In this document: positions 6,389-57,805 of the stretch, one piece after another
Layout: each line of letters opens with the position of its first letter
Numbering within the stretch: the stretch's first letter is position 1
Source of the DNA: Patescibacteria group bacterium
Lineage (GTDB): Bacteria > Patescibacteriota > Patescibacteriia > UBA2591 > UBA4787
Reading direction: 5' to 3'
Assembly (NCBI GenBank): GCA_028715115.1
Contig: JAQUSN010000001.1
Span: 67,314-131,313, forward strand
DNA: 64,000 nucleotides
Made by a program: the position numbers and the translations under genes
Notes under the pieces: model-generated
Database searches by the model: none
What the model was told of the DNA's origin: nothing
The model's input: the letters and a program-made list of their open reading frames with translations, nothing else

Positions 6389-6423
6389 TACAATATAAGC
6401 ACACAAACCAAAGGAGGAATGCC

Positions 6424-6888
6424 GTGAGAAAAACGCTTGTGGCCGTAAGCCTCGTCTGCCTTCTGACCGTCCCGACCTTCGGGTTCGACGTGGTCAAATT
6501 GACCATGTGCAGCGGTCAACCGGCCAACTTCAAGGCTGCCACTACCCTGTTCGGACCGCTGATGGCCAGGATCGGCATCCCGATCCCAGCCAAGCCTATG
6601 TCCATCAACTTGGGTCTTGGAGCCATGTTCCGGATCCAAATGAACCAGAACAGCGTCTTGAGTCTCAATCCGCTCATCGCTATGACGGTGAGCGATACCT
6701 CGCAGGGCCCAACGCCCTACGTACCGCTCATCTCATCAGACAACGTCTTGAGCCTCTGCCTCGGCAAGACAACCGGGCCAGAGTTCGAAACAAAGTTCGC
6801 GGCCGACTACTGCCTGACCGCAGCGCCGGGCGATCCCAAGATCGTTCCCTCCGGATATCTCTTCGGACTCCAACGACTCAACGGCTGA
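6424..6888 (+). CDS. Secreted hypothetical protein (signal peptide) in GC-rich island 1
   Basis: GTG start 5 nt after AAAGGAGG; N-terminus VRKTLVAVSLVCLLTVPTFG is a signal peptide. The six-frame ORF track opens at an upstream ATG (6379) that lies before the RBS. After the TGA at 6886 the same frame stays open for 61 further codons. Confidence 0.5.
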   Translation: MRKTLVAVSLVCLLTVPTFGFDVVKLTMCSGQPANFKAATTLFGPLMARIGIPIPAKPMSINLGLGAMFRIQMNQNSVLSLNPLIAMTVSDTSQGPTPYVPLISSDNVLSLCLGKTTGPEFETKFAADYCLTAAPGDPKIVPSGYLFGLQRLNG

Positions 6889-7096
6889 GCCGTTGGCGCA
6901 CAAGCCGACGCTAAGTACAAGAAAGGATTGACGTTGTACGCCGGACCGCGAGCCGATCGGATCATCGGCAAGTTCAGGCTCTACTTCGCCTGGGAACGGC
7001 TCATTACCGCGCCCAGCGCGCCCACGCCCCCAAGTCAATGGACATGGAAGGCGGAAGGCAAGTACAGCTTCTGAACTAAGACCTCATCTTCACAGA

Positions 7097-7126
7097 GGGC
7101 GTCGCAAGACGCCCTTTAATTTTATT
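7097..7126 (+). terminator. Intrinsic terminator (GGGCGTC-GCAA-GACGCCC + TTTAATTTTATT)
   Basis: Perfect 7 bp GC stem followed by a T-rich tract; marks the right edge of GC-rich island 1. Confidence 0.55.
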
Positions 7127-11297: not shown

Positions 11298-11314
11298 AAA
11301 TAGTGCTCAACGAT

Positions 11315-11400
11315 GCCCACGTGGCGGAATTGGTATACGCGCAGGTCTCAGAAGCCTGGCCCGCAAGGGCATGTCGGTTCGACCCCGACCGTGGGCACCA
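11315..11400 (+). tRNA. tRNA-Leu (anticodon CAG), type II with long variable arm, CCA encoded
   Basis: Acceptor stem GCCCACG/CGTGGGC; D arm GCGGAATTGGTATACGC; anticodon stem-loop CAGGT-CTCAGAA-GCCTG; long variable arm GCCCGCAAGGGCAT; T arm GTCGG-TTCGACC-CCGAC; 3' ACCA. Confidence 0.85.
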
Positions 11401-11422
11401 TATTAAAATTTTATATCATTTT

Positions 11423-12418
11423 ATGAGCCGTTTATTTAGCGGTATACAACCAACTGGAGTTATCCATATCGGCAATTATTTAGGCGCTATCAAAAATTGG
11501 GTGGCCTTGCAAGAAAAATACGATAGCCTTTTTTGCGTGGTCAACTATCACGCCATGACCGTGCCTTATGACGCCAAAAAAATGCCTCAAATGACTTTAG
11601 ATTTAGCTATTGATTTAATGGCTTGCGGCATTGACCCATCCGCCAGCCGGCGGACTATTTTATTCGTCCAATCTGACGTGCCAGAAACTACCGAATTAAC
11701 CTGGATTTTAAACACGGTTACTCCGATTGGTGATTTAAAAAGAATGACACAGTTCAAAGATAAATCAGAAGAACATCCAGAAGCCGTAAACATGGGTTTA
11801 TTTGATTATCCGGTTCTTATGGCCGCTGATATTTTACTTTATAAGGCCACTGTTGTGCCGGTCGGAGAAGATCAATTACAACACTTGGAACTATCGCGTG
11901 AAATCGCCCGCCGATTTAACAATGCTTTTGGTAAAACCTTCGACGAACCTAAGCCGCTTTTAACCAAAGCCGCCCGGCTAATGAGTTTAACCGACCCAAC
12001 TAAAAAAATGAGCAAATCTATGGGCCCGGAAAGTTATATTGCCATTACCGACAGCCCGGAAGTAATTGAAAAAAAACTGGCCACAGCCGTGACTGATGAA
12101 GCCAGAAAAAAAAGAACCGACCCTGGCGCGCCGGAAAAATGCAATATTTATGCTTTACATAAATTTTTCTCTTCTAAAGATGAGATTGATTATATTGCAA
12201 CTAATTGCCAAAAAGCCAGTATCGGCTGTTTGGATTGTAAAAAGCTTTTAGCCAAAAATATTATTAAAGAACTTGAACCGATACAAAAAAAGCGAGCCGA
12301 ATTAATTAAAAATCTCAACCAAGTTAAAAAGATTTTAGCTGACGGCGCTATCCGAGCTAGAGCCATAGCTAGGAAAAATATCGAAGAGATAAAAAATAAA
12401 ACCGGCTTATTCTATTAA
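11423..12418 (+). CDS. trpS: Tryptophan--tRNA ligase
   Basis: MSRLFSGIQPTGVIHIGNYLGAI (HIGH-type motif) and KMSKS (KKMSKSMG). The track ORF 11303-12418 has an artefactual N-terminal extension that covers the tRNA; the real start is the ATG at 11423. Confidence 0.9.
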   Translation: MSRLFSGIQPTGVIHIGNYLGAIKNWVALQEKYDSLFCVVNYHAMTVPYDAKKMPQMTLDLAIDLMACGIDPSASRRTILFVQSDVPETTELTWILNTVTPIGDLKRMTQFKDKSEEHPEAVNMGLFDYPVLMAADILLYKATVVPVGEDQLQHLELSREIARRFNNAFGKTFDEPKPLLTKAARLMSLTDPTKKMSKSMGPESYIAITDSPEVIEKKLATAVTDEARKKRTDPGAPEKCNIYALHKFFSSKDEIDYIATNCQKASIGCLDCKKLLAKNIIKELEPIQKKRAELIKNLNQVKKILADGAIRARAIARKNIEEIKNKTGLFY

Positions 12419-24879: not shown

Positions 24880-25020
24880 ATAAAAAATTTTTACTTATAA
24901 TAAATTAATATTTTAACAAAATTTTAAGACTTAATCAAAGAAACGGCCATCAAATTATAACATAAAATAAAATTAAATTAAAGATCTTCTACTATAATTA
25001 ATCAAAAACTAATAAAAAGT

Positions 25021-25053
25021 AAAACGGCCCCAGGTAAAACCCAGGGCCGTTTC
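25021..25053 (-). terminator. Hairpin AAACGGCCC(CAGG)...(CCCA)GGGCCGTTT downstream of the GC-rich island 2 gene
   Basis: 7-10 bp GC stem followed on the minus strand by TTTTACTTTTTATT. Confidence 0.5.
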
Positions 25054-25067
25054 TGCGATTTGGAGGC

Positions 25068-26562
25068 CTAGCGAATAAGGACGAGCCTGACTGGCGGCGA
25101 ACCATCCGAGGTTCTTGCTTCGTAAACGCCATTCGGCGCCGCGAAACCGCCATCGTCTCTTCCATCCCAGAGACGCCCTGATTCTCGTCCAGCAACATGC
25201 CTGACGCACCGGCCGGTAGAGTTATAGATTTTAACCGAGTTGACGCTGGTTAAAAACCTAAACTCCCTGCCAATCGTCGGCTTAACGACCAGCGGCTTTC
25301 CGGCATGGATTAAGGTCGAGCTTTCTTCGATGCCCATGGCTGGCACAACCAGACGAACGCCATAGCCAAGGTGATGAGCCACTTTGTGGCGCCGACCCAC
25401 GGCTATAATCGTATCTCCCCTGGCTATCCAGTCGCGAAGACAGAAACTCGGTAGGAAACTGTCTGATCCATGGAATGTCCAGAGGGTATCTTGATTCGCA
25501 TAGTCGAATGCCACAACCAGGCCGTGGCCAAAGGCGCCGCCACCCTGACCGACTGCTATTACTACGTGCCCGCTGGCCCATTTCTTCAGCCTATACAAAA
25601 CCGAAGGGTTGCCGTATGAGAAGTAGGATTTGGTCCAAAGCGTATCGCCATTTCTTAGGTCAACAGCCATAAACCAGAATCTTCCTTCATCGTAACGCGA
25701 AGTCTTTGCTACCACTAGGGCGATAGTATCATCCAGTTGCTCGACGTCGGCGGCGTCATCGGCCGAATCGGGATTGCCGTAAGTGCGACTCCATAACAGC
25801 TCCCCCGCCGTATCCAAGCGGGTAACAGATATGTCCCAAGCATGCATTTCGTTGGTGTCGGCGACAGTGCCAACAACAATAAAATCGCCATTGGTAAGAC
25901 GCCGCATGCTTCTAACGCTGTCCTTTCTGGCAAGACTATAGGTCCGACGCCAAATCGGAACAGCGTGACAGTTGATCTTCATCAACAGCAGATTGGACAT
26001 GCCGAGTTCTTTGCGGGTAACCGAATCAACCGGACGGTTCTCTCCAGCCACCATGATGTTACTATCGTTGGGCAACATGACTGCGGCTCGGACGTAGTCA
26101 TCGCTCGGGAGTACGGGTAGATGGTAGAAGAAGTTGATGCTGTCGAATCGCTCGTTAACAGCTGCCTGAACCGCGAAAAAGCCGCAGAAAGGATGGTCCC
26201 CCGAGAGGTTCACGCCAACCGCATAGAAAGTATCCCTGTGACTAAATAGCTCACAGGGATCTTCGTGGGTGTAGACGTAGGGGGGCGGAACATTATAGGC
26301 ACGCCGTCCCAATACCTCCCCCTGTGTATTCATCCGGAACAGAGCAACTGGTAGCGTCGCGGCTCCTGGCGGAGTCGGCTCCCAATCAAAAGTACCCAAC
26401 ACTATGAGCTCATTGCCCCAGGGAGCTTCATAGATCCGATAGTACAACGACCCAAGAATGCATGTATCCCGAAACTCCCCCCAGGTTGATAGGCGCTACA
26501 GCCGACGCAGTCGTGGCCAGAAAGACCACGACCAGACAGACGACCATTATCAGGTGTTTCAT
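25068..26562 (-). pseudogene. Frameshifted gene for a secreted beta-propeller-like protein with T9SS-type C-terminal sorting-domain-like tail (GC-rich island 2)
   Basis: The ATG at 26562 with an AAGGAGG RBS gives signal peptide MKHLIMVVCLVVVFLATTASAVA, and that frame stops after 44 codons. The 459-codon body is in the +1 frame with no start of its own (the track uses an internal TTG). Deleting one G from the G6 run (C6 on the plus strand, 26477-26482) fuses the two. The C-terminus VKIYNSTGRCVRHV...LWDGRDDGG...GVYEARTSDG...RLVLIR matches the Por/T9SS CTD or FlgD-Ig-like pattern. Coding GC is about 58% by eye. Confidence 0.55.
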
Positions 26563-27142
26563 TTTCTGCCTCCTTAGCAGAGTTTGTTAAAGATCTCCTC
26601 CTGATTGAGCCATAATAGGCCCATGATTCGGTTTTATCGCGTTTTAAAATAATGTCAAGCCCATTTAGAACAACTTTACCCCGTTAATCAGGAAGCTGTC
26701 ATTAAAACTAGGCATAAATTAATTTTAATATTCGAGTAGAATATTCCTTTTTAAAAAATAGGGATTAACGGGGATTACTAACTGCCTTTGTTTTGACTTT
26801 AATATATTACTTTAATGCATTAATGTTAACATTTTGACTCATATTTCTACGGCCGTTAAAATGTGAGTCAAAAAACAATTTATGCCATTTATTTACATAT
26901 ATATAAATAAGGGCCATGTTTACGACGTTATAAAAGAGAAATATAAAATTTTCTAACTGGGTAAAGGTACAATTTTCTGCTATAATAAATAGTATCAAAC
27001 GTACAATTTATAGTATATAACCTATAATATTTAATAAATATGCGTATTGGCATAGACGCTCGCCCCCGGTCACAAGCAGGGCATGTGAGGGGACGTCGCT
27101 CGTTTAAACCAATTACGTTATCATGATTAAATAATTAATAAT

Positions 27143-27682
27143 TTGGCTTTGTTTATGAAGATAGGAATAGACGCTCGCTTCTTTGGCCCACAGGGCAAAG
27201 GAATCGGCAGATACACAGAGAAGTTGATTGAATCTTTGGAAAAGCTCGATCAAAACAACGAGTATTTTATCTTTTTAACTAAAGAGGGGTTTGATTTGTA
27301 TGAACCTAAAAACAAGAACTTCCATAAAGTTTTAGCTAATTATCCTTGGTATTCTTTTAAGGAACAATTGCTTTTGCCAAGACTACTAAACCAATATCAT
27401 TTGGATTTGATGCATTTCTTACATTTTAATAAACCACTACTCTACAAAGGAAAGTATGTGGTGACTATACATGATTTGACCTTGTTGGATTTCTCGACAA
27501 AAAAAAACACCCAGGGAAAATCCTGGTGGTGGTTTAAAAATATTATTTTTAAAATCGTCATCAGTCAGTCAATAAAAAGCTCGGAAAGAATTATCGCTGA
27601 CTCGCAATTTATAAAAAACGATCTATTGAAAAGGTTTAAAATACCAGAAGATAAAATTAAGGTTATAGAGTTGGCAGTGTAA
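27143..27682 (+). pseudogene. Glycosyltransferase family 4, N-terminal fragment only (truncated)
   Basis: 179 aa; MKIGIDARFFGPQGKGIGRYT is the canonical GT4 N-terminus, but the ORF ends after the first Rossmann half. The 5' end of the gene is partially duplicated at 27041. Confidence 0.55.
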
Positions 27683-27856: not shown

Positions 27857-28495
27857 ATGAAATATAATCAAATATATCAAAATAATAATGTTTGGGGACA
27901 ACAACCAAACAGACTCTTACGGAAACTTCATGGCCTCTTTAATATTAGCGGGGGGTTCTTGGATTTGGGCTGCGGGCAAGGAAGGGATTCTTTGTTTATG
28001 CTACAAAAGGGATTCAAGGTAGACGCTGTAGATAATTCTCAAGAAGGCATAAATAAAATAAAAGAGCAAATTCAAGTAAATAATTTACTGCCCACTAACA
28101 TAACTCTATTTTGCGATAGGATTCAAAATTTTAATATTGCGAAAGATAAATATGGCATCATAAATGCTTTCAACTCATTGCAGTTTTTGTCCAAGCAAGA
28201 GGCTTTAAAAATAATTAATAACATTAAAAGTAATATAAAAAACAACGGATATGTTATTATTTCTAGCTTTACTACGAATGATCCACTTTATATAAAAATA
28301 AACAACGATAAACGCTGTTTTTTTGAACCTCAGGAATTAAAAAAAATATTTTCTGACTTTAATATTATTGAATATGAAGAAAAAATTATCGAAGATAAGG
28401 GACACCCCGGCACCCCAAAACCGCACCATCATGGGATTGTAAAATTAATTGCACAAAAGATAAGAAGTATTCCAAACAATAATACTATTATTTAA
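27857..28495 (+). CDS. Class I SAM-dependent methyltransferase (TehB-like)
   Basis: 212 aa; motif I LDLGCGQGRDS, small Rossmann fold. Confidence 0.7.
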   Translation: MKYNQIYQNNNVWGQQPNRLLRKLHGLFNISGGFLDLGCGQGRDSLFMLQKGFKVDAVDNSQEGINKIKEQIQVNNLLPTNITLFCDRIQNFNIAKDKYGIINAFNSLQFLSKQEALKIINNIKSNIKNNGYVIISSFTTNDPLYIKINNDKRCFFEPQELKKIFSDFNIIEYEEKIIEDKGHPGTPKPHHHGIVKLIAQKIRSIPNNNTII

Positions 28496-28578: not shown

Positions 28579-28639
28579 ATCGAAATCGAGCTACGAACCT
28601 CCAGTCGTAGTCGAAGGGATGGTAGATGTCGTCTAGGAA

Positions 28640-30157
28640 TTAACGAACGACGATAACCTTGTGAGTCTTTTCCAGGTCAGTATCAAACAGGAAGAACACT
28701 CCCTGCTCGATCGGGTCCTGAATTCGCCGTCCATTGACGTCGAAGATGACGAACTTGTGTTGAGCGAAGACGCGCTTGAAAGACGCGAACGGGATGACGG
28801 TAGGAAGGGGCGCCTCGTGATTAAGCACATTTGCCTGCTCTTCAAGTATACTGGTTGGTAGTATGTAGATGCTGTCGACAAGGGTGTCGTTGTGTGGCGA
28901 CTGGTCGCCCGAGAGCTGAGTGACACAGCGAACGCGCACCCATCCAGTAGTGCTATCGCTACGGGACGAAAAGCTGATGAGAGCTTCGTGGTTGGGAAGT
29001 ACTTGCGAACTGGTGTCTAGATAGCGGTTGGAATCGACGTAGAGTTCAGCTGGAATGACAGTGGGGTAAATGCCGTGATTTTTGACGTTGATGTTAATGC
29101 CAAACGAGACGTTGAGATTCACAGTGTCTGGAACGACCAGCTCCAGCGGCTGAGCATCGATTGAGTCGATGATAGCTGGCCGAGGCCACAAGACAAAGAT
29201 GTCTTTAAGGTGGCCCGGATCGACAATCTGGTAATCCTCGTATCCTGGCCTGGTGTTTCGAGCTCGAATCCAGGTAGAACACTTGGCTACAGAAAGTCGG
29301 CTGTCGTTAAAGCCAGGTAGATCGCGGCCATTAACCGTATCAATCGCAGTCAACCAATAGCCGGGCGGAGTGCCGTTCGTGCTGCGATACCAGCTCGGTT
29401 CAATCCCACCGCACAGCACTGTTCCCAGATGAGTCCAAAACTCAAGCTGGTAGTTGACGTCATTCTCGCATCCTGGCGTATATGGTGCGCCGGGATACTC
29501 GTAGTCATCAGCCCAGCCTGGAGACCAGGCTGGCTGGGGTCCGGCCGCGCTTACGACTACAGTCTTATAACGGATGGCTTCCGGCGCTTTACAGCCAAAC
29601 CAGGTAGCAATGCCCTGGTGCAAACTGTCTACACCAGTACCAAAGGCGAAACAAGACCAAACGGCAACGAACTTGTAGCCAGGCACTGCACAGCACCAAG
29701 CAGCTAACATACTGTCGGTCAGGACTTCGTTGTTCCACAGAACCGTCTGCCAGAGATGCTCTGGTGGAGGGCAACCATGGCCGATAACCTGAACAACCAG
29801 GATGTCGTTGGAGTCCATCTGACTACCATAGCTGCTAAGGTGGCGCTGAATGCTTGCGAGCGTAGTCGAATCATCAATCGGCGATCGCCGATATTTCACA
29901 CTAACGCCCGAAAGGGGATTTCCCCGCTGTGGCCAAGCATTGCCCATCAGATTGACGTTAGTATCGACCTGAAACCGGCCGTCCTGGCAAGCCGAGTCAT
30001 ATCCTTTCACCTGATACCACATGCAAATGTCGTCACTCATGTTCTGAGCATTGGACGTGCAAATGGTCAGACTGAAAACCTTCTGGGAGTCCGGCGTCTG
30101 GGCAAAACCCAAGCCGAACAGCACCAGAACGAACAGAGCGGGAAAGAGCTGTTTCAT
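28640..30157 (-). CDS. Secreted protein with T9SS-type C-terminal sorting-domain-like tail (GC-rich island 3)
   Basis: 505 aa; signal peptide MKQLFPALFVLVLFGLGFAQ; Cys-rich body; C-terminus KFVIFDVNGRRIQDPIEQGVFFLFDTDLEKTHKVIVVR resembles a T9SS CTD. AAGGAG RBS 7 nt before the ATG. Coding GC about 55% by eye. Confidence 0.6.
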   Translation of the reverse strand: MKQLFPALFVLVLFGLGFAQTPDSQKVFSLTICTSNAQNMSDDICMWYQVKGYDSACQDGRFQVDTNVNLMGNAWPQRGNPLSGVSVKYRRSPIDDSTTLASIQRHLSSYGSQMDSNDILVVQVIGHGCPPPEHLWQTVLWNNEVLTDSMLAAWCCAVPGYKFVAVWSCFAFGTGVDSLHQGIATWFGCKAPEAIRYKTVVVSAAGPQPAWSPGWADDYEYPGAPYTPGCENDVNYQLEFWTHLGTVLCGGIEPSWYRSTNGTPPGYWLTAIDTVNGRDLPGFNDSRLSVAKCSTWIRARNTRPGYEDYQIVDPGHLKDIFVLWPRPAIIDSIDAQPLELVVPDTVNLNVSFGININVKNHGIYPTVIPAELYVDSNRYLDTSSQVLPNHEALISFSSRSDSTTGWVRVRCVTQLSGDQSPHNDTLVDSIYILPTSILEEQANVLNHEAPLPTVIPFASFKRVFAQHKFVIFDVNGRRIQDPIEQGVFFLFDTDLEKTHKVIVVR

Positions 30158-52536: not shown

Positions 52537-53042
52537 GATACTCTCCTTTCGTGAAGGCTTGTTTGTCCCTCACTCTTATGCCCCTCAGCCTATGACCTAC
52601 GCTAGATAAACTAGATCAATCATAAATTGTGGCTACTTCCTGACTAGGAGGGATTGTCAGTTTCACCGCTGAGGAGCAGAAGAGTAAAGAACAATTCATT
52701 CATTCATATTAATATCATAACAGATTTTTTGACTTTTGTCAACCCCCCACCCTAAACTTTTTGGCGGGGTTAAGCCCGCACTTGAAATTTATAGGTAAGA
52801 GATCAAGAGGAAGGTGTTGCCTATAATAATTTTTTTTAATATAATAAAGGTAGTCCCTCCTCGCCCAGCTAGCTGATTCGAGGTGCTCCCGCCAGCCGTC
52901 GCCTGCCAGATGTTATAGTAAATAAAATTTAGATACGCCCTGCTAATAATAAACATTGAAAACACTTTGACTTATGGTAGGCAGGCCAAAATTCTAAGAA
53001 AAATTTTACAAATTGTGTGCTTAATTTTCTAATAATCTTAGT

Positions 53043-56642: not shown

Positions 56643-56805
56643 AAGTAGCTTTACGGACTTGCCCAGTTAGAACAACTTTACTAATACCCTAGTTTCGACC
56701 CATTTTGGTCGTTTTTTAAATTAATATAATATTTTAGTGAATAAACTATTTAACAATACTAGATGAGGCATTGAGGGGGAGAAACGTAAAATTTTCTAAC
56801 TGGGG

Positions 56806-56834
56806 TTGACAAAAAGACAAAAATATGATAGAAT
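56806..56834 (+). promoter_or_regulatory. Consensus promoter TTGACA-N17-TAGAAT for the island 5 lipoprotein gene
   Basis: TTGACA at 56806-56811, TAGAAT at 56829-56834; directly preceded by the 18 bp repeat TAAAATTTTCTAACTGGG. Confidence 0.6.
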
Positions 56835-56903
56835 CTTAATAAGATATGGGGCCGTACTAGGAGGTATGGCCTTCTATGTCGAAGTAGAAACAAAGGAGGT
56901 ACT

Positions 56904-57711
56904 GTGAAGTTCGTTACCACCCTACTGATCGCCATAATGGCGGTCATGTTCGTCGGCTGCGCCACCACCGGCATTACGCCGAATCCCACCGCCGGCTTCA
57001 GGTTTGAGTCGCAGGTAGTCGGTGACCCCCGAGACCGGCCTGCAGACACCAATCGCCAGCGCCGAAGTCTCTATCTCCGGCGCCAACATCCAAGACAGAG
57101 CCCTGCGGGATACGATCATAAAGAACGTCAAGGGCAAATTCGACGAGTTGGTTGACCAATGCCTTCAGTTCAACAACCTCGTCCTAACCAAGGCTGTTCT
57201 GGATATAAAAAAGCGGGATGCCGAAGACTCTATCTTAAGAGCGCAGGGCGTGATCAAGGCCAAGGTGGGCATCATCAACGGCTCTAACCAAGAGCTGTAT
57301 GTGGTGGTCCCATCTCAAGACCGAGGCGTTCGAGTCTGTCCAATACAGACTGCCAAGGTTAACAAGGTGAATGGCAACATTCTCTACCTGACACCAAATT
57401 CCAAAGTACCCCTCGTTGTTCAGAGCAAAGTCAACGGGCGCTGGAGCAAAACGTACACCACTGTCATCGACGTTCCCTACGCAGCTCCAGAAGACCGCAA
57501 GCCCTATCGTGACCTAAACAACGAAGGCTACGACCTCATCTACATCATCAACCTCGACGAGATGAAGCCCGCTTCAACCTCAATCGGAGCTGGCGCAACC
57601 GGAAGTATTGGTGGGGTAGAAAATACCCGTTGCTGCCACAACGACCCAGCCTACTGGCGAACAGCCGGATTCAATGTATATGGGTCCGGACCCGGCGATC
57701 GATTGCGGTAG
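56904..57711 (+). pseudogene. Frameshifted lipoprotein gene (GC-rich island 5)
   Basis: GTG at 56904 after AAGGAGG gives VKFVTTLLIAIMAVMFVGC (lipoprotein signal with lipobox Cys), but that frame becomes Arg-rich nonsense and stops at 57155. The 229-codon protein-like body (57022-57711) is in the +1 frame. Deleting one C from the C5 run at 57026-57030 fuses them (...ESQVVGDPETGLQTPIASAEV...). Confidence 0.55.
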
Positions 57712-57742
57712 ACAAGTGCGGTAGGCAAGAACTTCGAAACAA

Positions 57743-57775
57743 AAGGGACGCCCCTACGGGCGTCCCTTCCATTTT
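57743..57775 (+). terminator. Hairpin AAGGGACGCCC-ctac-GGGCGTCCCTT + CCATTTTACT
   Basis: Perfect 11 bp GC stem 31 bp after the stop; right edge of island 5. Confidence 0.6.
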
Positions 57776-57805
57776 ACTATATTGATATTATTTTTTAGCC
57801 ATCAA

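Follow-up and report, generated by a model that had tools for sequence, protein, structure and literature searches.

The gene in the second of four GC-rich islands in the 64-kb stretch of DNA analysed here (the window) is probably a recent frameshift pseudogene or null allele, produced by a G5 to G6 insertion at codon 28/29 of what was formerly a gene for a 497-aa exported protein. Recent pseudogenisation is the best supported of the explanations offered in a preliminary description of this locus: an intact, colinear and syntenic ortholog exists, the gene carries a single lesion, and two sibling genes in the window also have single lesions.

Organization of the island-2 gene

The island-2 gene lies on the minus strand, where the region reads CTAAGGAGGCAGAAAATG. 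Minus-strand reading confirms the start reported previously, with AAGGAGG at 26575–26569 followed by ATG at 26562 and a stop after 44 codons; the frame-0 ORF reads MKHLIMVVCLVVVFLATTASAVAPINLGGVSGYMHSWVVVLSDL and is terminated by TGA at 26430–26428. The body was said to occupy the next frame and to comprise 459 codons, which agrees with a 459-aa ORF in the mechanical ORF listing that begins with TTG at 26447, and the +1 frame as a whole is open for 470 codons, from 26495 (following TAG at 26498–26496) to TAG at 25070–25068. Deletion of one G from GGGGGG at 26482–26477 (C6 at 26477–26482 on the plus strand) joins the two frames, as had been proposed, into a 497-aa ORF (MKHL…APINLGEFRDTC…RLVLIR) to which the ortholog P0002 aligns through the junction. 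The reading frame is likewise restored by addition of two Gs to the run (G8, 498 aa). The features of the locus are as follows.

26631–26670, minus strand: putative promoter, inferred from sequence (TTCTAAATGGGC-TTGACA; −35 at 26658–26653, 16-nt spacer, TAAAAC at 26636–26631)
26569–26575, minus strand: Shine-Dalgarno sequence AAGGAGG with a 6-nt spacer to the ATG, from sequence reading
26500–26562, minus strand: start codon (26562–26560) and predicted 21-codon Sec-type signal peptide, MKHLIMVVCLVVVFLATTASA with cleavage before VAP, by the AxA rule
26477–26482, minus strand: run of six Gs (C6 in plus-strand reading) where the 1-bp insertion occurred, placed by the NLGEF conserved in P0002
26428–26430, minus strand: premature frame-0 TGA closing the 44-codon product, from sequence reading
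25349–26480, minus strand: +1-frame body, a putative degenerate beta-propeller (repaired residues ~28–405), from weak profile matches, repeats and a structural model
25068–25319, minus strand: putative C-terminal sorting-type beta-sandwich (…IYNSTGRCV…WDGRDD…NGVY…RLVLIR) and TAG at 25070–25068, from sub-cut-off Pfam matches and homologs
25021–25053, minus strand: predicted intrinsic terminator with a 15-bp stem, 3-nt loop and T-run, from a terminator scan

As judged from these signals, the island-2 gene is a complete transcription unit with a plausible putative promoter and a strong predicted terminator. The putative promoter was missed by a consensus scan because its −10 hexamer has a final C. 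An 18-nt motif that ends in the −35 hexamer is identical at its 16 specified positions upstream of the island-4 gene and is found nowhere else in the window. A signal peptide is present as originally reported, but its length is better given as 21 than as 23 residues, with cleavage between ASA and V after residue 21; the site was set by the AxA rule, which is a rule of thumb and not a signal-peptide predictor.

The body was also described as having no start codon of its own. This holds in that inspection of its start codons revealed no visible Shine-Dalgarno sequence, no signal peptide and no ATG with a ribosome binding site, but not literally, as TTG (26447) and GTG starts are present in the frame. 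Such starts are the ones used by gene callers, which give a 381-aa product at NCBI and a 444-aa product in Logan; both calls begin at a Val encoded in the window, and the NCBI start is GTG. Two Logan contigs also have a gene call for the 44-aa product itself, and a third has one for a 39-aa version of it.

Runs of six or more G or C residues are scarce, with four in the 64 kb and a maximum length of 6. One shift can join the two frames only within a zone of 65 nt, and the chance expectation of a run falling there is ~0.004, so the coincidence of the run with this zone is not attributable to chance. The G6 run spans codons 27–29 of 497 and is thus a 5′ coding tract that determines the frame by its length. 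Another run of 6 nt in the island-2 gene (C6, 26280–26285) is in frame, and further runs lie at 27950–27955 and 52743–52748.

A syntenic ortholog is colinear through the G run

Searched against 5.8 billion protein clusters, the repaired protein gave two close matches. The first, P0001, is the window's own truncated product (381 aa), deposited as 'MAG: hypothetical protein PHV78_00475, Patescibacteria group bacterium'. The second, P0002 (JGI, 485 aa), is the sole close full-length relative in these clusters, with 51% identity (BLASTP, E = 2e-160) between its residues 1–485 and residues 1–497 of the repaired protein, and a single indel accounts for the split in the island-2 gene. P0002 begins with MKHLMIVCLFVVLAITSAPGA, with predicted cleavage before SP. 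The alignment is unbroken at the junction, where the query reads …AVAPINLGEFRDTCILGS… and P0002 reads …GASPTNLGEFQDTSFYGS…. Frame 0 of the island-2 gene reads NLGGVSGY and the +1 frame GEFRDTC, and NLGEF is conserved in P0002; the colinearity of P0002 through NLGEF places the frame switch between Gly28 and Glu29, inside the G run. We infer that the ancestral tract was G5, with CTG GGG GAG encoding L G E. The structural reading of the preliminary description, in which a +1 shift within the G run divides a single secreted protein, is right, and the ortholog is in frame throughout.

The P0002 contig (4,956 bp, JGI metagenome 3300075153) has the same divergently transcribed short GT4 gene next to the P0002 gene, with a spacer of 578 bp compared to 580 bp in the window, and the neighbouring GT4 protein (P0033) is 83% identical to that of the window. 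The common divergent neighbour and the matching spacer identify P0002 as a syntenic ortholog. A contig scan of genomes gave remote matches only, 66 of 67 of them confined to the C-terminal region, and no close ortholog; two metagenome scans for the DNA encoding P0002 gave no match. In more distant relatives, with GT4 proteins 59–62% identical, PGK and NUDIX genes lie between enolase and GT4 and the island-2 gene is absent, which points to a lineage-specific acquisition that only the genome carrying P0002 shares. The island-2 protein has diverged far faster than its neighbour, with 51% compared to 83% identity to the counterparts in that genome.

The G6 allele is the only one assembled

Homopolymers are classical sites of indel error, and all of the data come from one study and presumably from one platform, such that the true tract could be G5 and the gene intact, as the preliminary description had allowed. 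We compared the window with run-level Logan contigs (L068, L069 and L070) from three SRA runs, which were built with a different assembler from that used for the window. The assemblies of SRR22315507 (6,053 bp), SRR22315508 (5,189 bp) and SRR22315509 (1,335 bp) are each 100% identical to the window, G6 included. The lesion is thus reproduced in three separate read sets that were independently assembled and agree over up to 6 kb, and this identity rules out an error-prone long-read platform. The same truncated gene call is present in three to four NCBI MAGs, and the P0001 cluster contains three NCBI accessions with an identical truncated product, one partial sequence, and one 444-aa Logan product. 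The housekeeping genes of the window show no visible splits, and the C6 run further downstream is read in frame. A sequencing or assembly artefact is thereby effectively refuted, and we regard it as highly improbable.

We also looked for the in-frame alternatives. Exact look-ups in a collection of ~15 billion proteins retrieved the 44-aa product but neither of the in-frame products, G5 (497 aa) or G8 (498 aa); in the homology search, the matches with 100% identity were all truncated forms. As the sole allele recovered by assembly, in three samples or more, G6 is probably fixed, or close to fixation, in the strain. The samples, which were all taken from adjacent SRA runs and do not differ (100% identity), probably represent one clonal population, so that 'fixed' is valid for that population only.

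The repaired product is predicted to be a secreted beta-propeller

The repaired product is predicted to be secreted and to consist of a beta-propeller followed by a C-terminal domain of weak FlgD-Ig/T9SS-like character. Profile matches in the body are all sub-threshold, and include PQQ_2 of the BamB-type propeller family (Pfam, E = 8e-4) and SBBP/delta-60 repeats (NCBIfam). The C-terminal domain has Pfam matches below cut-off to FlgD_ig (E = 1e-3, 19.4 bits versus a cut-off of 27) and CHU_C (E = 0.03). Neither of the T9SS sorting-domain profiles, PF18962 and TIGR04183, matches above its curated threshold, and TIGR04183 gave no match at all in the NCBIfam search of the repaired protein.

Remote homologs (E = 1e-20 to 1e-4, ~370–810 aa) mostly carry PF18962, the T9SS sorting tail, together with PF13860; both are present in P0003–P0022. 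This suggests that the island-2 C-terminal domain is related but degenerate. The homologs come mostly from the FCB group and allied candidate phyla: the few that are named belong to candidate division WOR-3, Gemmatimonadales and Calditrichaeota, and the genome-scan matches are mainly from Eisenbacteria, Krumholzibacteria, Gemmatimonadota, Fibrobacteraceae and Calditrichia. Their consensus (alignment A2) consists of ~45–50-residue repeats of the form D..L.KTD..GDTLWT..YGG…QT.DGGY, followed by a tail, PNPF…YD..GR.V…WDG.DD…LP.G.Y…K..L.R, whose motif is common to the island-2 protein.

Modelled with AlphaFold2, the body is all-beta (pTM 0.68). A sequence search of the PDB gave no match; the top Foldseek matches in the PDB are CylK and Sec12, and many of the best matches are beta-propellers (YncE, BamB and WD-repeat proteins). 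Most of the fold matches are those of beta-propellers in general and suggest no particular function. The possibility that the island-2 and island-3 proteins are paralogs was considered and rejected (BLASTP E = 0.76).

Single lesions in other GC-rich genes of the window

The island-2 gene appears, from its composition and distribution, to be foreign or accessory in character. Its GC3 is 0.58 and that of the other three GC islands is 0.60–0.75, compared with 0.36 for host genes. The window otherwise resembles a monoderm Patescibacteria segment, with LytR_cpsA_psr, Laminin_G_3, LTD and Wzy_C domains, and Patescibacteria are generally considered to be without an outer membrane. A search of the island borders revealed no mobile-element repeats, and one tRNA was the only Rfam family in the window. 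The GC-island genes form a small and unusual class, lineage-specific and fast-evolving, in which persistently GC-rich exported-protein genes with diderm-style features reside in the AT-rich genome of an uncultured Patescibacterium, and the GC-rich state is kept in a relative despite saturated synonymous sites.

Two other island genes have lesions of their own. The island-1 gene has a ribosome binding site, a GTG start at 6424 and a signal peptide, and is interrupted by an in-frame TGA at 6886–6888, beyond which it continues in frame to 7074 and a terminator. Its syntenic ortholog, P0152 (222 aa), is 60% identical across the whole read-through and has Trp at the position of the TGA; the corresponding DNA (L076) has TGG there and a GC3 of 0.67. 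Between the island-1 gene and this ortholog dS is ~1.2 and dN/dS is ~0.24 on both sides of the stop. The island-4 gene has a ribosome binding site, AAAGGAGG, a GTG start at 56904 and a lipoprotein-type signal (MKFVTTLLIAIMAVMFVG preceding C) in one frame, and a 229-codon body in the +1 frame. Its sole G/C run of at least 5 nt (C5, 57026–57030) falls in the zone where the two frames overlap, and a +1 shift at this run is probable on sequence grounds. The gene is an ORFan that matches only itself in the 5.8 billion clusters. The island-3 gene (505 aa) is intact and has no G/C run of 5 nt or more. An alternative code in which UGA is a sense codon was rejected, as the housekeeping genes are intact under table 11 and TGA ends 6 of 46 host genes.

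Three of the four GC-island genes in the window, with island 4 as a probable case, therefore carry a single fresh inactivating lesion, which suggests rapid turnover or switching of the exported repertoire in an episymbiont.

Tract length and the question of reversibility

A different interpretation of the G6 run is that it is a phase-variable contingency switch, in which slipped-strand mispairing alternates between ON states (G5 and G8) and OFF states (G6 and G7), with the sampled population being mostly OFF. The tract follows immediately on the signal-peptide region, at the 5′ end of the gene for a fast-evolving exported protein, and the rest of the island-2 gene is intact. The gene for a second GC-island secreted protein, that in island 4, also appears to be shifted at a 5′ C5 run, and in these two of the four GC-island genes the shift lies at a G/C run shortly after the signal peptide, 5% and 15% of the way along the gene, which is where a contingency tract would be expected (PMC2831843). 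Short 5′ tracts can switch reversibly, as in the A6/A7 tract of Listeria inlA, where reversion occurs at ~1000 times the frequency of point mutation (PMC2831843).

The distribution of alleles and the properties of the tract argue against such a switch. The window, the three run-level Logan contigs and the NCBI MAGs all have the G6 state alone, and the collection of 15 billion proteins contains no in-frame product; at the assembly level, therefore, there is no length polymorphism, with four assemblies and the MAG calls all having one state. Six residues is short for a G/C contingency tract, and a mycobacterial 7G tract shifts at ~3e-8 per generation (PMC10334774). The longest G/C runs in the 64 kb are of 6 nt, and the island genes have no excess of runs of at least 5 nt over shuffled sequences (5, 0, 1 and 1 observed versus 3.1, 3.0, 2.1 and 1.8 expected), so neither the length of the tract nor its context is that of a hypermutable sequence. 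In addition, the third lesion in this class of genes, that in island 1, is a nonsense codon and not a reversible tract. Slipped-strand phase variation, which had been raised at the outset, finds no positive support here, with one allele per assembly, neither of the in-frame products detected and no enrichment of runs, and we consider it unlikely. A broader proposal, in which the G6 run and the island-4 C5 run, with their common promoter motif, would act together as reversible ON/OFF switches and the GC-rich exported proteins would be contingency genes, strikes us as quite unlikely. If it were true, phase variation of surface or secreted proteins would be seen for the first time in the candidate phyla radiation, with possible roles in host attachment or phage evasion. 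A literature search on phase variation or T9SS in Patescibacteria found nothing relevant.

Decoding at the G run

The gene might instead be expressed as it stands, by programmed +1 frameshifting or leaky decoding, if Gly-tRNA re-pairs from GGG to the overlapping GGG in CUG-GGG-GGA so as to make some full-length protein. The P-site sequence is indeed slippery: GGG-G allows perfect +1 re-pairing, as does CCC-C in island 4, and the shifted product would read NLGEF, as does P0002. GGG is the rarest Gly codon in host genes (9%), and a G run is Shine-Dalgarno-like, as at the prfB site. Under leaky decoding, the CCC-C of island 4 and the UGA of island 1, decoded as Trp, would be leaky sites of the same sort.

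Several observations are difficult to reconcile with programmed or leaky decoding. The arrangement is not conserved, since the sole ortholog, P0002, is encoded by a single in-frame ORF. The 0-frame A-site codon, GGA, is neither rare nor a stop, and accounts for 19% of host Gly codons, and there is no stable RNA structure downstream (z = 0.2). TGA serves as an ordinary stop in host genes and there are no in-frame TGAs in housekeeping genes. We view programmed or leaky decoding as having very little probability.

A probable recent null allele

The interpretation that we favour, a recent null allele, requires only ordinary replication errors, such as the gain of one residue by a G/C run or a G→A transition. 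Replication slippage in the G run would have extended G5 to G6 as a 1-bp insertion. Translation from the intact ribosome binding site and ATG would then stop after 44 codons, and a mature peptide of no more than 21 to 23 residues would be exported. The body, having no signal peptide and no credible start, would be either untranslated or cytoplasmic, and no functional exported protein would result. The insertion may be part of a wave of single-hit inactivations that includes island 1 (TGG→TGA) and probably island 4. This points to relaxed or reversed selection on accessory exported proteins in the strain.

Apart from its one lesion, the island-2 gene is well preserved, and the promoter, the ribosome binding site, the signal peptide, the 470 open codons and the terminator are all still perfect. 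This is what would be expected of a very recent pseudogene, although it fits a reversible OFF state equally well. The 381-aa 'hypothetical protein' of the deposited MAGs should be re-annotated as a pseudogene in which a frameshift interrupts the coding sequence of an exported 497-aa beta-propeller protein.

Comparison with known systems

The programmed +1 shift in prfB (RF2) resembles the island-2 site in that P-site re-pairing may be possible beside a G-rich, Shine-Dalgarno-like sequence. It differs in that the island-2 site has no 0-frame stop or hungry A-site codon, no conservation in the ortholog, and no autoregulatory logic.

Poly-G/C contingency tracts are typically 7–13 nt long and visibly polymorphic within populations, whereas the island-2 tract is 6 nt and monomorphic in every assembly examined. 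The likeness to the poly-G/C loci of Neisseria, Campylobacter and Haemophilus, and to the 7C tract of Mycobacterium tuberculosis glpK (PMC10334774; PMC8355987), is that the length of a coding G/C run sets the frame. A closer parallel in tract length is the 5′ poly(A) tract of Listeria monocytogenes inlA (A7→A6; Orsi et al. 2010, PMC2831843), in which a short homopolymer of 6–7 nt also follows the start and signal region of an exported protein, and a 1-bp change in length yields a very short product while the rest of the gene is intact. The inlA tract is composed of A, whereas that of island 2 is composed of G and is put into the OFF state by insertion. Moreover, for inlA both alleles are present in related isolates and the reversion rate has been measured, whereas for the island-2 gene neither an ON allele nor independent recurrence was seen.

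The unitary frameshift pseudogenes of reduced or host-associated bacteria show no essential difference from the island-2 gene. In these too there is a single indel in a run and an intact ortholog in a close relative, regulatory signals persist, and other accessory genes carry single lesions. What is unusual at island 2 is the class of gene affected, which is GC-rich and diderm in style. Homopolymer frameshift pseudogenes are thus of a known kind, and the island-2 locus is a new and currently mis-annotated instance of it.

GC-rich islands and their genes

The window contains four discrete GC-rich islands, numbered by position, with GC contents of 52–58% and GC3 values of 0.58–0.75, compared with 39.5% GC for the genome and a GC3 of 0.36 for the host genes, the ordinary genes of the window.

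6401-7100: island 1
25001-26600: island 2
28601-30100: island 3
56801-57800: island 4

Every one of these (4/4) consists of one exported-protein gene, preceded by a strong RBS of its own. In a relative, the ortholog of the island-1 gene (L076, the DNA encoding the 222-aa protein P0152) is likewise GC-rich, with a GC3 of 0.67, even though dS is saturated at about 1.2, so the GC-richness is being maintained and does not merely reflect recent transfer without amelioration.

The gene of island 3 is intact.

28640-30157, minus strand: island-3 gene, 505 aa

Its product has a signal peptide (MKQLFPALFVLVLFGLGFAQ) and a C-terminus resembling a sorting-domain tail (…FDVNGRRI…KVIVVR); Pfam and NCBIfam searches gave no match, and no similarity is detectable to the protein of island 2, an exported beta-propeller protein encoded on the minus strand and split by a G6 run at 26482-26477.

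A disrupted reading frame in island 1 and a probable one in island 4

6424-7074, plus strand: island-1 secreted-protein gene, with an in-frame TGA at 6886-6888
56904-57711, plus strand: island-4 gene, apparently split like the island-2 gene

In the syntenic ortholog (P0152) the position of the island-1 TGA is occupied by TGG (Trp), and the 61 codons 3' of the TGA remain conserved, with a dN/dS of about 0.24 both before and after it. The TGA is the product of a recent nonsense mutation. A perfect inverted repeat with 7-bp arms (CAACGGC-TGA-GCCGTTG, 6879-6895) has this TGA in its loop.

The island-4 gene is an ORFan. AAAGGAGG, the GTG start at 56904 and a lipoprotein signal (MKFVTTLLIAIMAVMFVG followed by C) belong to a first frame that stops at 57155, and the body of 229 codons lies in the +1 frame relative to it. 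The sole G/C run of at least five in the gene is a C5 run at 57026-57030, and deletion of one C from it would fuse the signal frame and the body at this putative junction.

An upstream motif common to islands 2 and 4

26653-26670, minus strand: 18-nt motif upstream of the island-2 gene
56794-56811, plus strand: 18-nt motif upstream of the island-4 gene

Both frameshifted island genes are preceded by a common motif with a -35 hexamer at its end (TTCTAAATGGGCTTGACA and TTCTAACTGGGGTTGACA respectively), which has no further occurrence within the 64-kb window. Both leaders also carry a second AGGAGG 30–40 nt 5' of the true RBS, and these common elements may reflect either co-regulation or a common origin.

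A tRNA gene overlapped by an open reading frame

11303-12418, plus strand: mechanical ORF with a GTG start
11315-11400: tRNA-Leu(CAG)

Because this ORF overlaps the tRNA gene, its true start must lie downstream of tRNA-Leu(CAG).

The GT4 gene beside island 2

26832-26873: near-perfect 42-nt palindrome in the 580-bp island-2/GT4 intergenic region
27040-27105, plus strand: relic of a GT4 gene start
27143-27682, plus strand: short GT4 (glycosyltransferase-type) gene, divergent from the island-2 gene

The palindrome, a candidate operator, has 21-nt arms that are 86% complementary and no spacer. The relic, 115 nt 5' of the real GT4 start (MKIGIDAR, 27155), reads ATG CGT ATT GGC ATA GAC GCT CGC (MRIGIDAR) and continues with GC-rich sequence for some 60 nt; it is probably a rearrangement scar next to the island. 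The GT4 protein (175–179 aa) corresponds to the N-terminal domain alone, and we considered whether its gene is a truncated pseudogene; we reject this, since the short form is a widespread and conserved family in Patescibacteria, with 173 matches, nearly all of about 175 aa.

A relative (JGI 3300045146) is represented by contigs from more than one assembly, and in one of these (L072 2189-3781) a single iPGM gene is split into parts of 344 and 185 aa.

In the other contig of this relative (L071 7638-13804), the genes that come after GT4 encode a protein with a PKD domain, the DGR accessory protein bAvd and a Laminin_G protein of 1041 aa, and the GT4 neighbourhood is thus a variable surface-protein region.
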